A DNA stretch of 48,301 nucleotides from sequence record OL539447.1; one strand, written 5' to 3'. This DNA comes from Escherichia phage vB_ EcoD_Phleasolo. Within the stretch, counting starts at the first letter, position 1. Every line of letters starts with the position of its first letter. Made by a program: the position numbers and the translations under genes. Under the pieces are notes generated by a model, which was not told where the DNA came from, did no database searches, and saw nothing but the letters and a program-made list of their open reading frames with translations. Positions 2,255 through 48,060 of this stretch are shown here, piece by piece.

Positions 2255-2611
2255 ATGTTTAAAGCTAAATTTGTAAATTACAAAACACCAGCATCTGGTT
2301 ATATTGGTATTTTCACTCCTGGTAGGGAGTACAAACTAGATGTCATTGAGAATGACAGATATTATAGAACATACGATGATTACGGCGTAGAGGTTAAGTT
2401 CAATTCACTTTTTTTAGATAATTATGTTTTTGAGCGAGTTTCAGATTCCGAGCTGTTTGACATGATTGAGGAGCCAGCAAGCCTAAAGTATTATATCAAT
2501 GGCAACTTGGTGCAAAAAAGCTACTTCTACGAGTTAATTGGCGAGCTAAATGAGGCTGATAGACTTGGCGCCAAAGTGTCTTCAGTCAAATTTGAAATCA
2601 AGTTCGAGTAA
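2255..2611 (+). CDS. hypothetical protein
   Basis: 118-aa ORF with SD-like GAGAGGAG upstream; followed by a terminator. Confidence 0.4.
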   Translation: MFKAKFVNYKTPASGYIGIFTPGREYKLDVIENDRYYRTYDDYGVEVKFNSLFLDNYVFERVSDSELFDMIEEPASLKYYINGNLVQKSYFYELIGELNEADRLGAKVSSVKFEIKFE

Positions 2612-2631
2612 TCAAAACTCTGTGATACACT

Positions 2632-2656
2632 AGCCCCTACTCAGGGGCTTTTTTAT
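2632..2656 (+). terminator. rho-independent terminator
   Basis: Hairpin AGCCCCT-ACTC-AGGGGCT followed by TTTTTT. Confidence 0.6.
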
Positions 2657-2668
2657 TGGAGAAATTAC

Positions 2669-3937
2669 ATGGTAAAAGCAGACAGCTACGCAAACATCTT
2701 TCTTAACGGGAGTGATGGTAGCGAGATTTACGGAAGGTTTGGCGGCCTTGGCTTAACAGCTCCAGCGCAGCTTGAGCAGCTTTACGTCAGTAGCGCACTG
2801 GTTCGTCGAATTATTGATATCGTGCCAGAGGTTGCACTTGGCGCTGGCTTTAACATTGAGGGTATCGACGATGAAGGTGCTTTCTGGTCGCGCTGGGATG
2901 ATTTAGACCTTTCAGATAGTGTAATCGACGCACTGGCGTGGGCAAGATTATACGGTGGAGCTGCTGTAGTGGCAATTGTCAAGGATGGCAGGGCGCTAAC
3001 TAGCCAGGTTAGGGAGGGAGCTGAACTTGAAACTATCCGCGTCTACGACCGACAGCAAATTAAGGTTCAGACTCGAGAGGAGAATCCACGTAACGCGCGA
3101 TTTGGAAAGCCAGTTACCTATCGCATTACGCCAAATGGTTCGGCCACATTCTACGACGTGCATTACACTCGCTGCCACATCATCGATGGCGAAAGGGTTC
3201 CGAACAACCTACGCCGCAACAACGATGGTTGGGGCGCAAGCGTGCTAACTGGTGACTTAATCGACGCGATTGACGACTATCAGAACTGTGAGAGACTGGC
3301 TACTCAGTTACTTCGTCGAAAGCAACAGGCTGTGTGGAAAGCGAAAGGTTTGGCTGATTTATGCGATGATTCTGATGGATTTGGTGCAGCTCGCTTACGC
3401 CTGGCGCAGGTTGATAATAACAGCGGCGTTGGTCAGGCTATTGGTATTGATGCAGAGAGTGAAGAATATGACGTTCTTAACTCTGACATTGGTGGTATTG
3501 ATGCATTCTTGAGCCAGAAGTTCGACAGAATCGTTGCCCTGAGCGGCATCCATGAAATCATTCTCAAGGCCAAGAATACTGGAGGTGTATCAGCTAGCCA
3601 AAACACAGCCCTTGAGACTTTCTATGGTTATGTTGACCGCAAGCGCAAGTCAGACCTGCTTCCTTTACTTGGTTTCCTGATTCAATTTATTGTCACTCAG
3701 GACGAATGGTCAGTTGAATTTAATCCACTATCTCAAGTTAGCGATAAAGATAAATCTGAGATTCTAGAGAAGAACGTTAACTCAGTTTCAGCTCTTGTTG
3801 CTGGTGGCGTGATGAATACTGATGAAGCCCGTGATACACTACGAGCTATTGCGCCAGAGGTTAAGCTGCAAGATGGTGATATTGAGCAAACCGCTCAGGG
3901 GAAAACAGTCGAGGAGGTAGTGATTAATGAAGAGTAA
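2669..3937 (+). CDS. portal protein
   Basis: 422-aa ORF directly after the terminase genes and before the scaffold-like gene; assigned by synteny and size. Confidence 0.55.
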   Translation: MVKADSYANIFLNGSDGSEIYGRFGGLGLTAPAQLEQLYVSSALVRRIIDIVPEVALGAGFNIEGIDDEGAFWSRWDDLDLSDSVIDALAWARLYGGAAVVAIVKDGRALTSQVREGAELETIRVYDRQQIKVQTREENPRNARFGKPVTYRITPNGSATFYDVHYTRCHIIDGERVPNNLRRNNDGWGASVLTGDLIDAIDDYQNCERLATQLLRRKQQAVWKAKGLADLCDDSDGFGAARLRLAQVDNNSGVGQAIGIDAESEEYDVLNSDIGGIDAFLSQKFDRIVALSGIHEIILKAKNTGGVSASQNTALETFYGYVDRKRKSDLLPLLGFLIQFIVTQDEWSVEFNPLSQVSDKDKSEILEKNVNSVSALVAGGVMNTDEARDTLRAIAPEVKLQDGDIEQTAQGKTVEEVVINEE

Positions 3938-5036
3938 AATGCGTTATGACAGCGCTAAAGTAAAAGCCCGTTTCGATGAGAACGGGTTTCTAGTGGACAC
4001 TCCAGTGGTTGCTCGTGTTGGTGTTCAAACATACTACATGCCAGATGGCTCAGAGCGCCGAGAGTTCCGACCAGCATCAGAGGTGTTTAAATCCGATTCC
4101 CTGCAAAGCTATCAGGGCAAGCCGCTTACGCTTGGTCATGTAGTTGTTAATTCAGATAACGCCAAGGATGTTGTAGTTGGAGCAGTATCTGGTGCAGCTA
4201 TGCGTCAGGATTCTACAGTTGTCGTTCCTCTAACAGTTTACGATAAGCAGGCAATAGAAAAGGCTAAGTCTGGCGTTGCTGGTGAGCTATCGGTTGGCTA
4301 TAACACTGTTGATATTGAGTCTCCTGGCTGGGGTAGTAACGAAACGGGTGAGTATAAGCTTGATGGAGAGTACGCAAGCCAGGATGATATCCCTGCTGAT
4401 TGGGTACGCTTTGATGCCCTGCAAACAAACATCGTTGTGAACCACATTGCTCTGGTATATAAAGGCCGCGCGCAAGTAGCTAAACTGAATCTGGACGCGG
4501 AACAGGAAAACCCGTATACTGATACCGTTCAATCAAATAAAGAGGATAAATTGATGATTAAGATTAAACTGGATGGCGAGCAGGAGTTCGAAATCGCCCC
4601 GGAAGTTGCTAAGCACATCGAAGCTGTTAAAGCTGATGCAGAACAGGCAAAAGCAAAAGCTGACACCCTTGAAGCTGAGCGTGACGCACTGAAAGCTAAA
4701 GTTGATGGCATTCCTGCTGAAATTGAATCTGCCGTAGCGAAAGCTAAAGCTGATGCTGACGAACTGGCCGCTCTGGTTGCTACCGCTGCAGAAGCTGGCG
4801 TTAAAGCTGATGGTATGGATGCTAAAGCAATCAAAGTTGCTTACGTTAAAGAAGTATCCGGCCTTGACGTTGCAGAGAAATCTGACGCATACATCGATGC
4901 GGCCTTTGATATCGCTAAAGATAGTGATAAAATGGCTGAAGTCCGCAAAGCAGTTGTTGCTGCGGATAAATCTGACGCTGCCGACGCGCCTAAGAAATTA
5001 GACCCGCGCGCTCGCCTCGCTAAATTGAAAAAATAA
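3927..5036 (+). CDS. head scaffolding / prohead maturation-like protein
   Basis: 369 aa; C-terminal half is an Ala/Lys/Glu-rich predicted coiled coil typical of scaffolding proteins; sits between portal and capsid genes. Confidence 0.4.
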   Translation: MKSKMRYDSAKVKARFDENGFLVDTPVVARVGVQTYYMPDGSERREFRPASEVFKSDSLQSYQGKPLTLGHVVVNSDNAKDVVVGAVSGAAMRQDSTVVVPLTVYDKQAIEKAKSGVAGELSVGYNTVDIESPGWGSNETGEYKLDGEYASQDDIPADWVRFDALQTNIVVNHIALVYKGRAQVAKLNLDAEQENPYTDTVQSNKEDKLMIKIKLDGEQEFEIAPEVAKHIEAVKADAEQAKAKADTLEAERDALKAKVDGIPAEIESAVAKAKADADELAALVATAAEAGVKADGMDAKAIKVAYVKEVSGLDVAEKSDAYIDAAFDIAKDSDKMAEVRKAVVAADKSDAADAPKKLDPRARLAKLKK

Positions 5037-5047
5037 GGAGTCTTAAT

Positions 5048-5518
5048 ATGGCAATTCGTCGTCAAGCTACTGCTGGTATGGTTGCAGATACCTCTCTGTA
5101 CAATATCGATGGTGCCTGTGTAATGTCTACCGGCGTAGTCCAGGGTGTCGGTTATGCTGTTGGTGTCGGTTCTGTTGATGCTGATGGTCACAAAGTTCTG
5201 ATTTCCGCTGTTGCTGATAACGTATACGGCGTCCTGGTGAAGTCACACTACGAAAGCCCGCGTGGTTCTTACGGTGGTGTTGTTGGTAACATTGATAACT
5301 TCCAGGTCGCAAACGTAATGACTCACGGTCGCATCTGGATGGTTACCGGCCTTCCTTCTGCTCCTGCATTTGGTAGTGCTGTTACCATTGATACTAATGG
5401 TTCCGCAACAAGCGGCGGCGCAGTCACTACCAACTGGACCTTCGCCGGTGGTTTCCAGGCAGCTGACACTGTGTCTGGCGAACCAGCACTGGTTGAAGTT
5501 CAGGTTATTCAGAAATAA
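5048..5518 (+). CDS. Gly/Val-rich capsid-associated protein (decoration-like)
   Basis: 156-aa ORF with AGGAG RBS in the head module; function inferred from position only. Confidence 0.3.
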   Translation: MAIRRQATAGMVADTSLYNIDGACVMSTGVVQGVGYAVGVGSVDADGHKVLISAVADNVYGVLVKSHYESPRGSYGGVVGNIDNFQVANVMTHGRIWMVTGLPSAPAFGSAVTIDTNGSATSGGAVTTNWTFAGGFQAADTVSGEPALVEVQVIQK

Positions 5519-5535
5519 TTAGCAAAGCTAAACTA

Positions 5536-5559
5536 AACCTCCTCCGGGAGGTTTTTTTA
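5536..5559 (+). terminator. rho-independent terminator
   Basis: ACCTCC-TCCG-GGAGGT hairpin plus T7 run; near-identical copies at 6900 and 12870. Confidence 0.7.
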
Positions 5560-5602
5560 TGCCTGTAAACTGGTACAATTAGTTTCACTTTAAATCGGAG
5601 GA

Positions 5603-18503: not shown

Positions 18504-21500
18504 ATGGCACAAATGGTTAAACAAACAACGAGGTTATATGATATGGCCGATTTGCCAAAGATTTATGGAAGCAAGGGTGGTGGCAAGAAGCCACACACAC
18601 CTGTGGAGCAAGAAGATAACCTGGTTTCACTAAACAAGATTAAGGTGCTGCTGGCCGTTGCTGATGGTGAGGTTGATTCTAGCTTCTCACTTAAGGATGT
18701 TTACCTTGCTGACGTTCCAGTGCAGAACCAGGACAACTCATTCAACTATGAAGGTGTAACCGCTGAGTTTCGCCCAGGCACTCAATCTCAAGATTACATC
18801 GCCGGGCTAGACGGTGAGGCATCAGAGATTCAGGTTAGTCGTGAGATTAACAATGATACACCTTACATCATCGCAGTTAACAACAGTCAGCTTTCAGCAA
18901 TCCGAGTCAAGCTGTTCTGGCCTCGACTCGTTAAGCAAGAAGAGAATGGAGATTTAAATGGCACAACATGTGAATATGCAATCGATTTATCAGTTAATGG
19001 CTCAGCGTACACTGAATATACCAGAGGCGTGGCTAACGGTAAAACTACAACAGGTTACGACCGCAGTATCAGGGTTAACTTACCAGCCGAGTTTAGCAGC
19101 GCTCTTGTTCGTATTAGGAAGTTAACGCCAGACTCAACAAGCAGCACACTGGTTAACGGAATGCAGATTACAACCTATCAGGAAGTAATCGACGCTAAGT
19201 TCCGCTACCCTCTTACAGCGCTTGTTTACGTTGAGTTCAGCTCCGACCTATTCCCCAATGGCATCCCAACGATAGCTATTAAGAAAAAGTGGAAGCTTAT
19301 CCGCGTACCGACAAACTACAATCCAGAGACAAGGACTTATAGCGGCACATGGGATGGTACCTTTAAGATGGCGTGGTCTGACAACCCGGCCTGGGTTTTA
19401 TATGACCTTGTGGTTAGTCAGCGTTACGGATTAGATCAGCGAGAACTTGGTGTAGAGATTGATAAATGGGGTCTGTATGAAGCTGCGCAATTCTGTGACC
19501 AGATGGTTCCTGATGGTAAGGGTGGAATGGAGCCGCGATATACTTGCAACGTTGTAATTCAGCAGAAGGTTGAAGCATACCAGCTTATTCGTGACATCTG
19601 TTCTATATTCCGCGGTTTAACCTTCTATGATGGTGAGCAAATCGGGATTGTTGTAGACAGGCCGCGCCAGCCAAGTTACGTGTTCACCAATGATAACGTT
19701 GTTGATGGATTGTTTAACAGGACATTCTCTAGCGATAAGTCTCTTTACACGACTGCAAACGTTCAGTTTGATGACGTAGAGAATAACTATCAGCAAGATG
19801 TTGAACCAGTGTTCGACCTTGAAGCAACTCGCCGCTTTGGTTATAACCCTGTAGACCTGACCGCAATTGGATGCGTAAGGCGTAGTGAAGCTAACCGTCG
19901 AGGTCGCTGGTTGCTGAAAACAAACCTTCGAAGTGAAACGGTAACGTTCACAACTGGCCTCGAAGGGATGATTCCTATGATTGGTGATGTAATTGCTGTC
20001 AATGACCAGGCTTGGTCAAGCAACTACACATTGAACCTTTCGGGTCGAATCGTTGAGGCTACTGGTCTGCAGGTTTTTGTTCCTTTCGCTATTGATGCGG
20101 ACCCAGGCGACAGGATTTTAATCAACAAGCCCGATGGAAGCCCGGAGTACAGGACTATCGCTTCAGTATCTGCAGATAAGCTTACGCTTGAACTGAACAC
20201 AGCATTCAGTTTCACGCCGCAGCCGGATACGGTATTCGCAATCGATAAGCAGAATCTGGCGTTGCAGCAGTATGTGGTGACCGGGATTCAAAAAGCTAAC
20301 ACGGATGGAGAGGACTCATTCCAGTACAGCATCACAGCTGTTCAGTATGATCCTAACAAGTACGATGAGATTGACTACGGAGTAAACATCGATGACAGGC
20401 CAACAAGCATCGTTGACCCTGACAGGATTTTGCCACCGCAGAACATCACCGTTACTAGCTACAGCAAGGTAGTGCAGGGCTTAAGCGTTGAGACGATGGT
20501 TATTGGTTACGACAAAGTGCAGTATGCGAAAACATACAACGTACAATGGCGTAAGAATAACGGAAACTGGATTAACGTTCCTGAGACGGCTAACACTGAA
20601 GTTGATATTGAAGGTATCTACGCTGGCATTTACGACGTCAGGGTTCGTGCTGTAACTGACCAAAAATCAGTATCGGCATGGTCAGAAATCACAACTGTTA
20701 GCCTCACTGGCAAAATTGGAGAACCATCTGCGCCGCCTGTAATTACGGCTTCTGATGATGAGGTTTTCGGAATTAGGGTTAAGTGGGGCTTCCCTACTGA
20801 CTCAGCGGATACTGCGTACACCGAGCTTCAGCAGGTTCCTGATAATGGTGACGGTACATACAATCCAGAGAATGCATCACTGCTTACCCTGGTTCCTTAT
20901 CCTCAGTACGAATACTGGCACACAACTTTACCAGCAGGTAACGTGAGGTGGTACAGGGCGAGGATTATTGACAGGATAGGTAACGTATCTCCATGGACTG
21001 ATTTTGTCAGGGGTATGGCATCTGATGATGTAAGTGCAATCATTGGCGACATCAAGGTTGATATCGAAAACTCTGATGGTTACAAGTATCTTCTCCAGAA
21101 CGCCATTGATGCAAATACTGACATCCAGAACCAGGCCGAAGCAATAATTGAGAACGCATTAGCAAACGATACTGACGTGCGCGTTATGAAGCGCGAGAAT
21201 GGAGCAAGGAAGGCTGAATATCGCCAGGCTGTTAGTTTGATTGCTGATGAAACTCAGGCGCGTGTAAATGCTCTCACAGAACTTAAAGCGCAGATTGATG
21301 ATGAGATTGTTGGTCAGATTACGACAATTGAAACTGCTTTAGCTACAGAGACCGAGGCAAGGGCTACTGCTGATACCGCTCTAAGCGCAAGGCTTGGTGA
21401 TAACGAGGCGGCTTTGAATCAGAAGCTTGACTCTTACGCCACGGTCGAAGGCGTTGGTGTTCAGTACGGCGTTAAGCTAGGTCTGAAGTACAATGGAGTT

Positions 21501-43257: not shown

Positions 43258-43928
43258 TGTTTGATTTCAAAGAGGATAAACTTACTTATGAGCAGGTGTT
43301 AGCAGCAGCAGCGGCAGACAATCTGCCTCCCTTGCGAGTATCAATAATTGCAAATGGTTACCGACAATCTGCAAATCTATGGCCTGAACTGGATAAGGTA
43401 TGGCGAATACAGTAATTTTTACATTGATGAGTGCGTTGAACTATATGAAGGATATGGCGAGCCAACTGCGTGCCATGGAGATGAGCTTGGTATCAGCTTT
43501 CCCGAAGAGCGTGAGGATTGATATATGACAAAGATTTCGAACTAGACACTGGAGCTTTAAAGATTATAGAAATCCTCATTAATCAAGGAATGAGCAGTAA
43601 AGGTGTCGTTGGTCTCGGGTCACTATATAATACAGTAAGGAAAGTTAAACCATTCGAAGGTAAAAGTGAAGTAATTATGGATATCAGAGATGTCATCATC
43701 CCAAACCTTGATAAGCTTGGCTATGCATGCCTAATCGGAGATAAGATTTACATCAACCCTAAACTGCTTGATGGCAACCAGGACTGGACTTACAAGGTTA
43801 AGCTGCTGGAAGATGATTTCAACATCGACGATTGCGAGAAGATTGTTGACGAGATTACTATCAAGGCAATTGATGAGCAAATCGAGAGGCTCAAGCGGAA
43901 GAAGAAGTACCTCCTGACCGGTAAATAG
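43257..43928 (+). pseudogene. internally deleted paralog of the 527-aa P-loop gene (N-terminal 52-aa ORF 43257-43415 plus C-terminal ORF 43518-43928)
   Basis: MFDFKEDKLTYEQVLAAAAADNLPPLRVSIIANGYRQSA matches the N-terminus of the 39368-40951 protein; ...KGVVGLGSLYNTVRKVKPFEG...YACLIGDKIYINPKLL matches its C-terminus; ATPase core absent. Confidence 0.45.
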
Positions 43929-43968
43929 CACGAATTGCTAAACCAGTTCCGCAGGGATGCGTTATAGT
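43926..43968 (+). promoter_or_regulatory. representative phage promoter unit: TAGCA-N5-TGCTA palindrome, 22-nt spacer with CGCA-GGGA-TGCG mini-palindrome, TATAGT -10
   Basis: Same architecture recurs about 16 times across the genome, followed by a conserved CATCGAAACGA leader. Confidence 0.5.
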
Positions 43969-44289
43969 TATTTCATCGAAACGAAATGGTTAATAGAGGA
44001 AGGCAAATGAGTTATTACGAAGTTATCGACACTGGCAATAAATCATTACTTGGCTCAAAGCGCTTTAAATGTACCGGCCAAGGGTTCACTGGATACGGCT
44101 TTGACGAGAAAGATGCCATCCTGGAATGGAAAGAAGCTAAATACATTGGGGAGTTCGACGAATGAAACACATTGGATGGCTGGTAAACGGAACGTTCTAC
44201 TCACTAACCGACGCAGTAAGGGTGGAAAGAATTAGAGTTAACTGCGGACGAAATGTCCAGATTCTTGAAATTTACGCAGAGGAGGAAGT

Positions 44290-44766
44290 ATGCGTAAGGT
44301 ACTGATGATATGCGTCTATGTTGCCATATTCTTATTGGCAAACCTCCTGGTAGCCTCATTTGGTCCAGCGGTAACTCCATTTAACGCACTTTTTCTTATA
44401 GCGGCAGACATGGTATTAAGGGACAGGATTCAGTTTGAGAGCGGTGCGGCATGGTCAATACTAGCATGCTTCCTTGCCGGATTTGCGACTGTATTAATAG
44501 CGCCAGGTTCAGAGATGATTGCTTTAGCATCTGGCCTATCATGCTTACTTGCTGGATCAGCTTCAGCGATTGCATTCAAATTAAAGTCTGGTGGATTTTT
44601 TCAGAAGGCGTTGCCAGCAAACGTAATTGCTGCTGCGGTAGATTCAATTGCATTCCCATTAATTGCTTTCGGGTCTATAATGCCAGGCATAACAGCAGCC
44701 CAGTTTGCCGCTAAAACTATTGGCGCATCAATCATACTATTAATCATAAGGAAATTATCTAAGTGA
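44290..44766 (+). CDS. small polytopic inner-membrane protein (possible precursor transporter; family unverified)
   Basis: 158 aa with 4-5 hydrophobic helices; RBS GGAGG; stop overlaps the next gene's GTG start (GTGA). Confidence 0.4.
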   Translation: MRKVLMICVYVAIFLLANLLVASFGPAVTPFNALFLIAADMVLRDRIQFESGAAWSILACFLAGFATVLIAPGSEMIALASGLSCLLAGSASAIAFKLKSGGFFQKALPANVIAAAVDSIAFPLIAFGSIMPGITAAQFAAKTIGASIILLIIRKLSK

Positions 44767-45593
44767 CAATTCACTTCCATGGCTCCCCTATAACGGGGGG
44801 CAAGGGCGATGCACTTGCTCGGACCGCGTATACAAATGGCGGTGCTTTCGTGTCATTCGCCCACCCGCAGCAGATAGAATTGGCGTTTAAGGTAGCGAAT
44901 GCAGTATGCATAGATAATGGTGCGTTCTCTAAGAAGAATAGCGGCAAAGCTACTGACTGGCATAAATTCTATAATGACTTTTTACCCAGATTTATCGACA
45001 GAGAAAAGTTACGATTCTTTGTTATACCTGATGATATCAGCGGGTGCGACAAAGAGAACGACAGATTAATAAGCGAACTTCCATTACACCTAAAGCACAA
45101 AGGAGCTCCAGTCTGGCATATGCATGAGAGCTTAGACAGGCTAGTCCACCTTGCCAACGAGTGGGAATACATGTGTATAGGCTCGTCAGGCGAGTACTAC
45201 TCTATCCGTTCAGAGAAATGGAAGCGGCGCATGAATGATGCCTTTAACGCTCTAATTCAGAGGGGCTACTCAGCAAAAATTCACGGCCTCAGAATGCTGG
45301 ATGGTCGAGTTCTTGGCAACTACCCACTGGATCAGGCTGACTCAACAAACCTGGCTATTAATGCGCCTAAGTGGATATGCAAATATATAGATATGACCAT
45401 TGAGGCGTGCCGAGCTCAGACTCACAGAGACGCATGGATTTCAACCTCAGATCCGAAGTTTGCACTTGAGCAATTAATCGCAGACGGCGGCACAAGGGAG
45501 CAGATGCTGGCACAGAGATGCGCGATACTCAGGAATTGCATAGAAGCAGTAAGGCCACCATCAAGGGATTCATGGAATAGCACGAATTGCTAA
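44763..45593 (+). CDS. hypothetical enzyme (possible TGT/DpdA-like base-exchange enzyme)
   Basis: 276 aa; VCIDNGAFS resembles the TGT substrate-pocket motif (TDSGGFQ); no CxCxxC zinc site seen; coupled to the upstream membrane protein. Confidence 0.3.
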   Translation: MTIHFHGSPITGGKGDALARTAYTNGGAFVSFAHPQQIELAFKVANAVCIDNGAFSKKNSGKATDWHKFYNDFLPRFIDREKLRFFVIPDDISGCDKENDRLISELPLHLKHKGAPVWHMHESLDRLVHLANEWEYMCIGSSGEYYSIRSEKWKRRMNDAFNALIQRGYSAKIHGLRMLDGRVLGNYPLDQADSTNLAINAPKWICKYIDMTIEACRAQTHRDAWISTSDPKFALEQLIADGGTREQMLAQRCAILRNCIEAVRPPSRDSWNSTNC

Positions 45594-45644: not shown

Positions 45645-45863
45645 ATGATTATGGATACTGGAATTTTACGCATTGACGATGTTCACTTTGACCAGGCTGA
45701 GGTCAGTGTCACCAAGTTAACCTTTCGAGGTAATGTTGTTAGCCTTGACTTCGATCCTGACGACTACGGCGACGGTCAAACACTTATGCAATACTCACCT
45801 GTTGCGGCCCGCAAATTAGCGGCGGCATTAATCCTGGCGGCAGAAGAGGCGGAAGAGCAATGA
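45645..45863 (+). CDS. hypothetical protein
   Basis: 72-aa ORF with RBS GAAGAGGAA. Confidence 0.4.
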   Translation: MIMDTGILRIDDVHFDQAEVSVTKLTFRGNVVSLDFDPDDYGDGQTLMQYSPVAARKLAAALILAAEEAEEQ

Positions 45864-46217: not shown

Positions 46218-46469
46218 ATGAAGATTCATAGCAAGTACAACCGAGAGATTATCGGCCTGGATGGAACGTTAACGACAGTCGATGTATATCGTGTTCTGGA
46301 TGCATTCCAGGTAACAGACCCAGCAATTCAGCACGCAATCAAGAAAATGCTCTGTACTGGGTTGCGAGGCCACAAGGATTACCTCACCGACATTGATGAC
46401 TCAATAGAATCACTTAGGAAAGCAAAGGAGCTTTACGGTCAGAAGAAGATAAATAGCACGAATTGCTAA
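46218..46469 (+). CDS. hypothetical protein
   Basis: 83-aa ORF; ends ...NSTNC via the palindromic motif. Confidence 0.4.
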   Translation: MKIHSKYNREIIGLDGTLTTVDVYRVLDAFQVTDPAIQHAIKKMLCTGLRGHKDYLTDIDDSIESLRKAKELYGQKKINSTNC

Positions 46470-47756: not shown

Positions 47757-47858
47757 GCTCACGTTGCTAATGTTGGCCTAAGGGTGGAGCTTATACCTCC
47801 ATAAAGCAATCACCAGATAAGTGATGTAACGCAGGTTCGATTCCTGCCGTGAGCACCA
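47757..47858 (+). tRNA. tRNA-like element, non-canonical length (identity unresolved)
   Basis: Canonical T arm GCAGG-TTCGATT-CCTGC, 3' CGTGAGC-A-CCA and a perfect complementary GCTCACG 102 nt upstream; two internal 5-bp hairpins; no clean D arm. Confidence 0.3.
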
Positions 47859-47874
47859 ATCATGGAGCATCCTA

Positions 47875-48060
47875 GTGAATAACTACGAAGTCCGTTTAAC
47901 TTCCCGCCTAATGGGCAGGCAATGCAAATCTTGCCAGCAATCCTACGAAGGTAGGTTCCCTGCTAACAGCCCTGAAGAAGCAGTTGCAGCCGCAAAGGCA
48001 GCATTTAAGATTGACCTGACGGTTCACAAAGTCAGCGTTGATAAAGTATCCCTCGTTTGA
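47875..48060 (+). CDS. hypothetical protein
   Basis: 61-aa ORF with GGAG RBS; contains CxxC; followed by a terminator. Confidence 0.4.
   Translation: MNNYEVRLTSRLMGRQCKSCQQSYEGRFPANSPEEAVAAAKAAFKIDLTVHKVSVDKVSLV

Follow-up and report, generated by a model that had tools for sequence, protein, structure and literature searches.

A putative DpdA-like transglycosylase and Vut_1-type transporter in a repeat-bounded gene cassette of a T1-like coliphage

The DpdA1 enzymes of phages CAjan (gp35) and 9g are DNA guanine/preQ0 transglycosylases related to the tRNA-guanine transglycosylases (TGTs); both phages carry folE-queD-queE-queC (or gat-queC) and modify 25–32% of their guanines. Mutants of CAjan in folE or queC still incorporate host-derived preQ0, at a level 12-fold lower (PMC7544227), and in E. 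coli, 9g DpdA by itself is enough to insert dPreQ0 into plasmids (PMC6884629). The census of Hutinet et al. (2019) also lists DpdA-only phages, including Salmonella phages 7-11, SEN1, SPN3UB and BTP1, Enterobacteria phages SfI and HK106, and Pectobacterium phage PEAT2. Most phages of this kind in the census are temperate, lambdoid or prophages with the enzyme alone; they form the largest and least understood 7-deazaguanine-related group, and the field itself calls their modification status hard to predict. Here we describe a locus of Escherichia phage vB_EcoD_Phleasolo (sequence record OL539447.1, whose 48,301 nucleotides (nt) are referred to throughout as the window), in which two overlapping genes encode a 158-amino-acid (aa) membrane protein and a 276-aa soluble protein. 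A reading of the nucleotide sequence alone, hereafter the original prediction, had proposed that the two form a 7-deazaguanine DNA-modification module. Our comparisons indicate that with this locus a virulent, T1-like coliphage of the family Drexlerviridae joins the DpdA-only phages.

Profile evidence places the 276-aa protein in the phage DpdA lineage within the TGT superfamily, as a compact member that has no zinc site and appears to keep a full set of catalytic residues. Its match to PHROG 887, 'queuine tRNA-ribosyltransferase', has an E of 7e-71. Homologs number 3,116, for the most part prophage proteins without a name, and an exhaustive search gave 525 representative clusters. Direct tblastn relatives occur in about 100 phage records, and DpdA-only phages of the 2019 census, which lack biosynthesis genes, hold direct homologs at 37–48% identity (SEN1 48%, HK106 40%, PEAT2 38%, SfI and 7-11 37%), many of them alignable over residues 1–200 only. 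When a profile of 82 relatives was compared by hhalign with the CAjan DpdA1 family profile, the match covered 177 columns with 98.7% probability and E 1.7e-16; the probability against validated CAjan DpdA itself was 93%, and a tblastn search of the window with that protein gave E 0.001. The TGT/DpdA-type identity suggested for the soluble protein is thus borne out by both the PHROG and the DpdA1 family matches.

Only six residues, D51, D90, H119, H174, D193 and S194, are invariant across the 82 relatives, which share 27–60% identity. Five of these (D51, H119, H174, D193 and S194) align with invariant residues of CAjan DpdA1 (D63, H132, H187, D206 and S207), and D90 falls three residues from CAjan D105 in the profile alignment. 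The modelled fold is a (beta/alpha)8 TIM-barrel closest to TGT-family structures, in which D90 stands just after beta-4, H119 at the end of beta-5, and D193-S194, within the motif ADST, inside beta-8 (residues 191–194). In Salmonella Montevideo DpdA (PMC10164549), Asp95 serves as acid/base and has Phe99 at +4, Asp130 and His181 recognise the base, and the nucleophile is Asp256. The three Asp, two His and one Ser invariant in the phage family appear to match this active site and share its D(+4)F spacing (F55 lies at +4 from D51), which supports the DpdA assignment. We propose that D51 is the general acid/base, that D90 and H119 recognise the base, and that H174 partners a nucleophilic D193. The motifs that had been read as TGT-like, VCIDNGAFS (residues 47–55), IPDD (88–91) and GSSG (140–143), are present and were well chosen: IDNGAFS corresponds to CAjan LDSGAFS, GSSG to the CAjan Gly-rich block GGMVG, and IPDD contains the invariant D90, while the candidate nucleophile D193 had gone unnamed.

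Several results weigh against this assignment. Pfam (including PF01702, TGT) and NCBIfam scans of the 276-aa protein returned no match; phmmer and two hmmsearch runs against Protein Data Bank (PDB) sequences gave nothing or chance GCN4 coiled-coil matches; no PADLOC model, DpdA and Cap10 included, recognises the family; and the residue after D51 is Asn rather than Ser, so that the catalytic motif reads DNG in place of DSG. With no HMMER-level match to any TGT, DpdA or Cap10 model, and with Foldseek listing epimerases, aldolases and tryptophan synthase alpha as its top PDB matches (E 0.006 or weaker), the protein might be imagined as a TIM-barrel of unrelated chemistry with a merely generic likeness to TGT and DpdA, and its neighbour as an unrelated permease or a holin-like protein. 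However, this explanation is largely refuted and we hold it to be highly improbable: the profile-profile comparison (E 1.7e-16) aligns every conserved motif to validated DpdA, no residues are invariant but those that appear to make up the TGT catalytic set, and the gene recurs beside a Vut_1-family gene, as in the validated deazaguanine cluster of CAjan. The failed searches with curated hidden Markov models (HMMs) are themselves uninformative, because validated CAjan DpdA fails the same tests, having no Pfam match and reaching the bacterial DpdA model of PADLOC at E 0.0013. Nor is the missing zinc site disqualifying. The family has neither a CxCx2Cx22H motif nor a conserved Cys cluster, a lack that the original prediction had noted as a caveat, and validated CAjan DpdA also lacks the site; it marks bacterial DpdA and TGT, not the phage DpdA1-type enzymes.

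Direct comparison with the described enzymes gives a similar picture. The CAjan and 9g DpdA1 proteins share with the window protein the motifs (L/I)D(S/N)GAFS, P-x-(F/W)-H-x-x-E, a Gly-rich block after beta-6, (K)xH(G/A)(L/F) and xDS(T/S); like it, they have no CxCxxC site and no Pfam TGT match, and are encoded near a Vut_1-type gene of about 158 aa. They differ in pairwise identity (about 24%), in length (306 aa against 276 aa), in an unrelated C-terminal region after beta-8, in DSG against DNG, and in their accompanying biosynthesis genes, which the window phage lacks. S. Montevideo DpdA (PDB 7UI4), part of the Dpd restriction-modification system, follows the same logic of three Asp and a His with D(+4)F spacing, but is a 413-aa protein with Ins1, Ins2, Ins3, Ins8 and the CxCx2Cx22H zinc site, and needs the DpdB ATPase; the window phage has no DpdB, and its 276-aa protein has no HMM-level similarity to bacterial DpdA.

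The best structural match was unexpected, being Cap10 (PDB 9NTN; 13% identity, with no profile match) of the type IV cyclic-oligonucleotide-based antiphage signalling system (CBASS). Like the window protein, Cap10 forms a compact TGT barrel whose active site is laid out as D/S-D-(K/H)-H-D, and its catalytic His-Asp pair, H226/D248, is spaced similarly to H174/D193. The partners of Cap10 are the CD-NTase CdnD and the QueC-like Cap9; it acts on protein-linked 7-amido-7-deazaguanine, and the fact that it binds a protein-linked base, not DNA, weighs against a DNA substrate here. The target could accordingly be RNA or protein, the enzyme remodelling host tRNA at the queuosine position 34, as the PHROG and RefSeq label 'queuine tRNA-ribosyltransferase' might suggest, or handling a protein-linked 7-deazaguanine in the manner of Cap10, possibly so as to disturb type IV CBASS or QatABCD, defences that rely on conjugates of this kind. 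We regard this as unlikely. Sequence profiles tie the family to DpdA1 and not to Cap10; PADLOC assigned its bacterial DpdA model to CAjan DpdA and nothing to the window family; and neither a CD-NTase with an N-terminal M(G/S)G(G/S)GG tail, nor a QueC-like Cap9, nor Qat genes were found in the phage annotation or in our scans. The tRNA-binding insertions and zinc subdomain of TGTs are absent, and the sole tRNA gene annotated in the phage, a tRNA-Arg near the right genome end (window about 47805–47880), has no GUN anticodon and so offers no TGT substrate. The 'tRNA-ribosyltransferase' labels, for their part, are inherited names, not tests.

The neighbouring 158-aa protein is supported, via intermediates, as a short and divergent member of the Vut_1/YhhQ (COG1738, DUF165) superfamily, and is a candidate importer of a 7-deazaguanine precursor. 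An AlphaFold2 model (pLDDT 89.8) has six helices over residues 2–157, and the protein matches phrog_4899 at E 5e-28. Its own match to Pfam Vut_1 (PF02592) is sub-threshold (13.9 bits against a gathering cut-off of 27.2; E 0.07), but 10 of 18 relatives match that model at E 0.01 or below, the best at 1.2e-11, and hhalign pairs the family with CAjan gp41, a 'putative preQ0 transporter' of nearly equal length (159 aa), at 96% and E 2.6e-9. The top three structural matches in BFVD have TM scores of 0.64–0.74, and of these just one bears a name, 'Putative vitamin uptake transporter'; conserved polar residues, N18, D40, R44, S81, D118, S119 and K142, lie in the helices. E. coli YhhQ is longer (221 aa), but both proteins have six transmembrane helices and the motif D-(S/T)-x-x-F-x-x-I-A-F. 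The similarity to YhhQ itself is weak, and this counts against the assignment: hhalign gave 13.6% and E 0.002 over the C-terminal half only, and BLASTP was not significant. The suggestion of a YhhQ/DUF165 transporter holds for superfamily membership through intermediates; the protein's own Pfam match falls short, and the likeness to YhhQ is faint.

The two open reading frames (ORFs) overlap as originally described, the TGA stop of the VUT-like gene (44764–44766) and the GTG start of the DpdA-like gene (44763–44765) sharing the sequence GTGA; with a Shine-Dalgarno-like AGGA about 10 nt 5' of that GTG, these last two genes of the cassette are translationally coupled. GenBank entries for the phage relatives Opt-719 and Sadiya place the enzyme's start 87 nt later, at an internal GTG at window position 44850, and thereby omit 29 conserved N-terminal residues (44763–44849) that include the first barrel strand. 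The upstream GTG is the correct start, because the block IHFHGxPIxG encoded 5' of 44850 is invariant at H4, H6, G7, P9 and G12 in 40 homologs, and relatives have an ATG at exactly the position of GTG 44763 (ATG ACA ATT CAC). Current records thus cut the enzyme by 29 codons and name it a hypothetical protein, as do all three GenBank records of near-identical phages; the 158-aa protein of Opt-719 is labelled 'VUT family protein' at NCBI.

Adjacency of the two genes is recurrent. VUT-like and DpdA-like genes adjoin, and usually overlap, in 8 of 10 other phage lineages and in both gene orders, namely in Phc, Lg3, LHE71, RCIP0319, ECO111 5-P, Tbat1_6, PEAT2 and AB3P2, the order being reversed in AB3P2. 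The pair is also adjacent in one Tara marine contig, and a truncated contig has a VUT-like gene followed by an incomplete ORF that starts MRFF...IMDSGAF. In metagenome contig SRR22401716_2370, a 208-aa protein (2412–3038) overlaps a Vut_1 gene just downstream of a Lar restriction-alleviation gene; it matches the DpdA-like profile weakly (E 5.5e-4), has the motifs FDNDCF, APDV, VHMGRV and VDGT, and may by these be an even more reduced DpdA-like barrel.

The arrangement is not new in kind, contrary to what the original prediction implied. DpdA with YhhQ as the only companion was published in the 2019 census, where Clostridium phage CDKM15, halophage eHP-6 and Sinorhizobium phage phiLM21, compared here by listing and not by sequence, have adjacent DpdA and YhhQ genes with no preQ0 synthesis genes; their hosts belong to other phyla, and their transporters are detectable by PSI-BLAST with E. 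coli YhhQ, whereas the window protein barely is. The DpdA family itself was catalogued in that census, and RefSeq already labels the overlapping pair of PEAT2 as 'VUT family protein' and 'queuine tRNA-ribosyltransferase'. Supplementary Data 1 of the census leaves the YhhQ column of PEAT2 empty, although PEAT2 gp18, a VUT-family protein, overlaps DpdA (locus 3983–5208), so the short VUT subfamily fell below detection there. What is new here is the presence of the pair in T1-like phages, a revised start codon, the short 'mini-VUT' subfamily, a four-gene cassette bounded by repeats, and Cap10 as the best structural match; the window phage differs from the DpdA-only phages of 2019 in being virulent and T1-like and in the four-gene composition of its cassette.

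No precursor biosynthesis genes accompany the pair, as had been stated: the GenBank annotation of the phage genome lists no FolE, QueD, QueE or QueC, tblastn with the CAjan proteins found nothing below E 0.1 in the window, and the ten largest non-structural hypothetical proteins of the genome were assigned to other families. Any modifying base must therefore come from the host queuosine pathway, from outside the cell, or both, and the published 9g and CAjan results make a salvage arrangement plausible. On balance we favour a reading in which the cassette is a self-contained pairing of a DpdA-like enzyme with a Vut_1-type importer that salvages 7-deazaguanine for modification of phage DNA. A repeated phage regulatory element would probably drive the whole cassette as a single transcription unit. 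Following established TGT/DpdA chemistry (PMC10164549), the enzyme would act on double-stranded phage DNA: D193 would attack a target deoxyguanosine at C1', a covalent intermediate would form, D51 would protonate the leaving guanine, and the intermediate would be resolved by a 7-deazaguanine, most likely preQ0 or a base closely derived from it, so that a modified base stays in the DNA. The six-helix Vut_1-type protein would import precursors and so enlarge their pool during infection, and the benefit would be phage DNA shielded from restriction or from other defences that target nucleic acids. The level of modification may be low, as in 7-11, the only tested relative.

That last point bears directly on how much protection can be expected, and it counts, with several others, against the salvage reading. 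Phage 7-11, at 37% identity the nearest tested DpdA-only phage, contains 50 2'-deoxy-7-amido-7-deazaguanosines (dADG) per 10^6 nt, which amounts to about 0.02% of G, and lacks dPreQ0 (PMC6884629); the DpdA-only Mycobacterium phage Orion has no modification; and deletion of the yhhQ homolog of CAjan left modification unaffected (PMC7544227), with no phenotype. The mEp021/MagusPhagus group is the exception to the pairing: there, DNA methyltransferase genes flank the VUT-like gene, and no DpdA-like gene was found. These facts would suit a genuine DpdA-family transglycosylase that acts at trace level or at very few sites, gives little or no restriction protection, and has its value elsewhere, in marking a few sites or evading one defence, or is near-neutral cargo, the VUT-like protein perhaps carrying something other than preQ0. 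Bacterial DpdA and DpdA2 likewise modify less than 0.1% of G (PMC10516641), and the cassette is dispensable, being missing from the related phages AKS96 and Sf12. Such an outcome is a credible one, though we judge it decidedly less likely than salvage for protective modification: the catalytic residues are strictly conserved across the 82 diverse relatives in a family of more than 500 representative clusters, a link to a transporter this tight and this often repeated speaks for selection on an activity limited by substrate, and DpdA1 relatives attain 25–32% of G when substrate is plentiful.

We also considered, as a doubtful variant, that mini-VUT proteins and compact, zinc-less DpdA-only enzymes form a distinct salvage system that takes a 7-deazaguanine other than preQ0 from the environment (for example preQ1, a queuine-derived base, or one of the CDG/ADG type) and inserts it into phage DNA, or that diverts 7-deazaguanine intermediates from type IV CBASS or QatABCD; the latter is suggested because the top structural match is Cap10. 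If true, either variant would give the large DpdA-only group a role unlike classical dPreQ0 hypermodification.

Turning to the surroundings of the pair, the cassette spans 1,652 bp and four genes, two small genes (orf59 and orf47) preceding the VUT-like and DpdA-like genes, between two exact copies of an 18-bp element (Table 1). PHROG and Pfam searches with orf59 gave no match. At the same position upstream of the pair, orf59 is kept at 58–66% identity in Phc, Lg3 and LHE71, and orf47, directly 5' of the VUT-like gene, is kept at 53–60% identity in RCIP0319, Phc, LHE71 and Lg3; the two small genes thus travel with the pair in other Drexlerviridae. AKS96 and Sf12 hold one copy of the 18-bp element at this site. 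Their outer flanks are those of the window, and the copy runs straight into the sequence found after 45593; because of this we read the module as an insertion of 1,652 bp between repeats. By base composition the cassette does not stand out as foreign. The next unit to the right has a TATGAT box and an ATG at 45645.

Table 1. Positions in the window of the cassette genes, its boundaries and all copies of the 18-bp element.
Feature	Position	Strand	Basis or remark
Left boundary, exact 18-bp element AATAGCACGAATTGCTAA (TAGCA-N5-TGCTA inside)	43924–43941	+	Repeat scan, flank alignment
-10-like TATAGT	~43963–43968	+	About 22 nt downstream of left 18-mer; conserved leader CATCGAAACGA after it
orf59, small gene, first in cassette	43986–44165	+	ORF
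orf47, small gene	44162–44305	+	ORF; shares 4 nt with orf59 and 16 nt with VUT-like gene
VUT-like gene, 158-aa six-helix membrane protein	44290–44766	+	ORF, ATG start
DpdA-like gene, predicted 276-aa enzyme	44763–45593	+	ORF, GTG start
Right boundary, second exact 18-bp copy	45576–45593	+	Last five DpdA-like codons and stop (N-S-T-N-C-stop)
18-bp copies, + strand	2181, 26192, 33993, 36823, 37088, 43924, 45576, 46452	+	
18-bp copies, - strand	23377, 41448, 42125	-	

The window holds 11 copies of the element against 0.07 expected. Each is followed, about 22 nt on, by a TATAGT/TATAAT-like box, the conserved CATCGAAACGA leader, a ribosome-binding site and a start codon, and the element is probably a repeated phage promoter or operator, which appears to double as the boundary at which gene cassettes recombine. 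To read it as a canonical sigma-70 promoter, with TTGCTA of the repeat as the -35 box, is unsupported; the -10-like box comes 22 nt further on, and a promoter scanner gave no call.

The window sequence is the same as that of Klebsiella phage vB_KpnD_Opt-79 (OL539453.1, 48,301 bp), with its start rotated by 745 bp, and Escherichia phages Opt-719 and Sadiya (Drexlerviridae, Rogunavirinae) are essentially identical to it. The records OL539453.1, OL539451.1 and OL539467.1 are 100% identical over a 3-kb test region and 48,301–48,303 bp in total length, and their host labels disagree (Klebsiella pneumoniae, Escherichia coli and Serratia marcescens). E. coli BW25113 is given as the isolation host of Opt-719 and Sadiya in the genome announcement, which makes no mention of the VUT-like/DpdA-like region. 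With this host, for which que and yhhQ mutants exist, a bounded cassette of 1.65 kb and cassette-free relatives in AKS96 and Sf12, the system is tractable and offers a clean test bed for whether DpdA and an importer are enough for protective DNA modification. If the cassette proves inactive or works at trace level, what is left is merely a corrected annotation.

Some further observations concern relatives and neighbours of the cassette. In mEp021-like temperate phages the VUT-like homolog (35% identity) overlaps a phrog_757 DNA methyltransferase gene by 4 nt, downstream of genes for a DUF6378 protein and an N6-adenine methyltransferase (locus coordinates 3992–5259 / 18806–20073 in mEp021 and 2977–4241 in MagusPhagus); given this context, the VUT-like family associates with other DNA-modification genes too. 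We considered whether mEp021_33 might be a mis-annotated DpdA and rejected it as a true methyltransferase of family phrog_757.

To the right of the cassette, an 83-aa ORF (46218–46469) shares 44% identity (E 5e-14) with the last 79 residues of CAjan gp40 (locus coordinates 5014–5583), a gene of unknown function within the CAjan deazaguanine cluster. It was rejected as a part of the module, its domain (the C-terminal part of phrog_2452) being widespread in T1-like phages without DpdA and the ORF lying outside the cassette boundary; the link to the gp40 cluster is probably coincidental. Finally, several unrelated proteins share the C-terminus NSTNC, their final codons AAT AGC ACG AAT TGC TAA lying inside the 18-bp element (45576–45593, 46452–46469 and three homologs). 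Since the last five codons and the stop fall within it, the regulatory repeat itself sets these protein C-termini.

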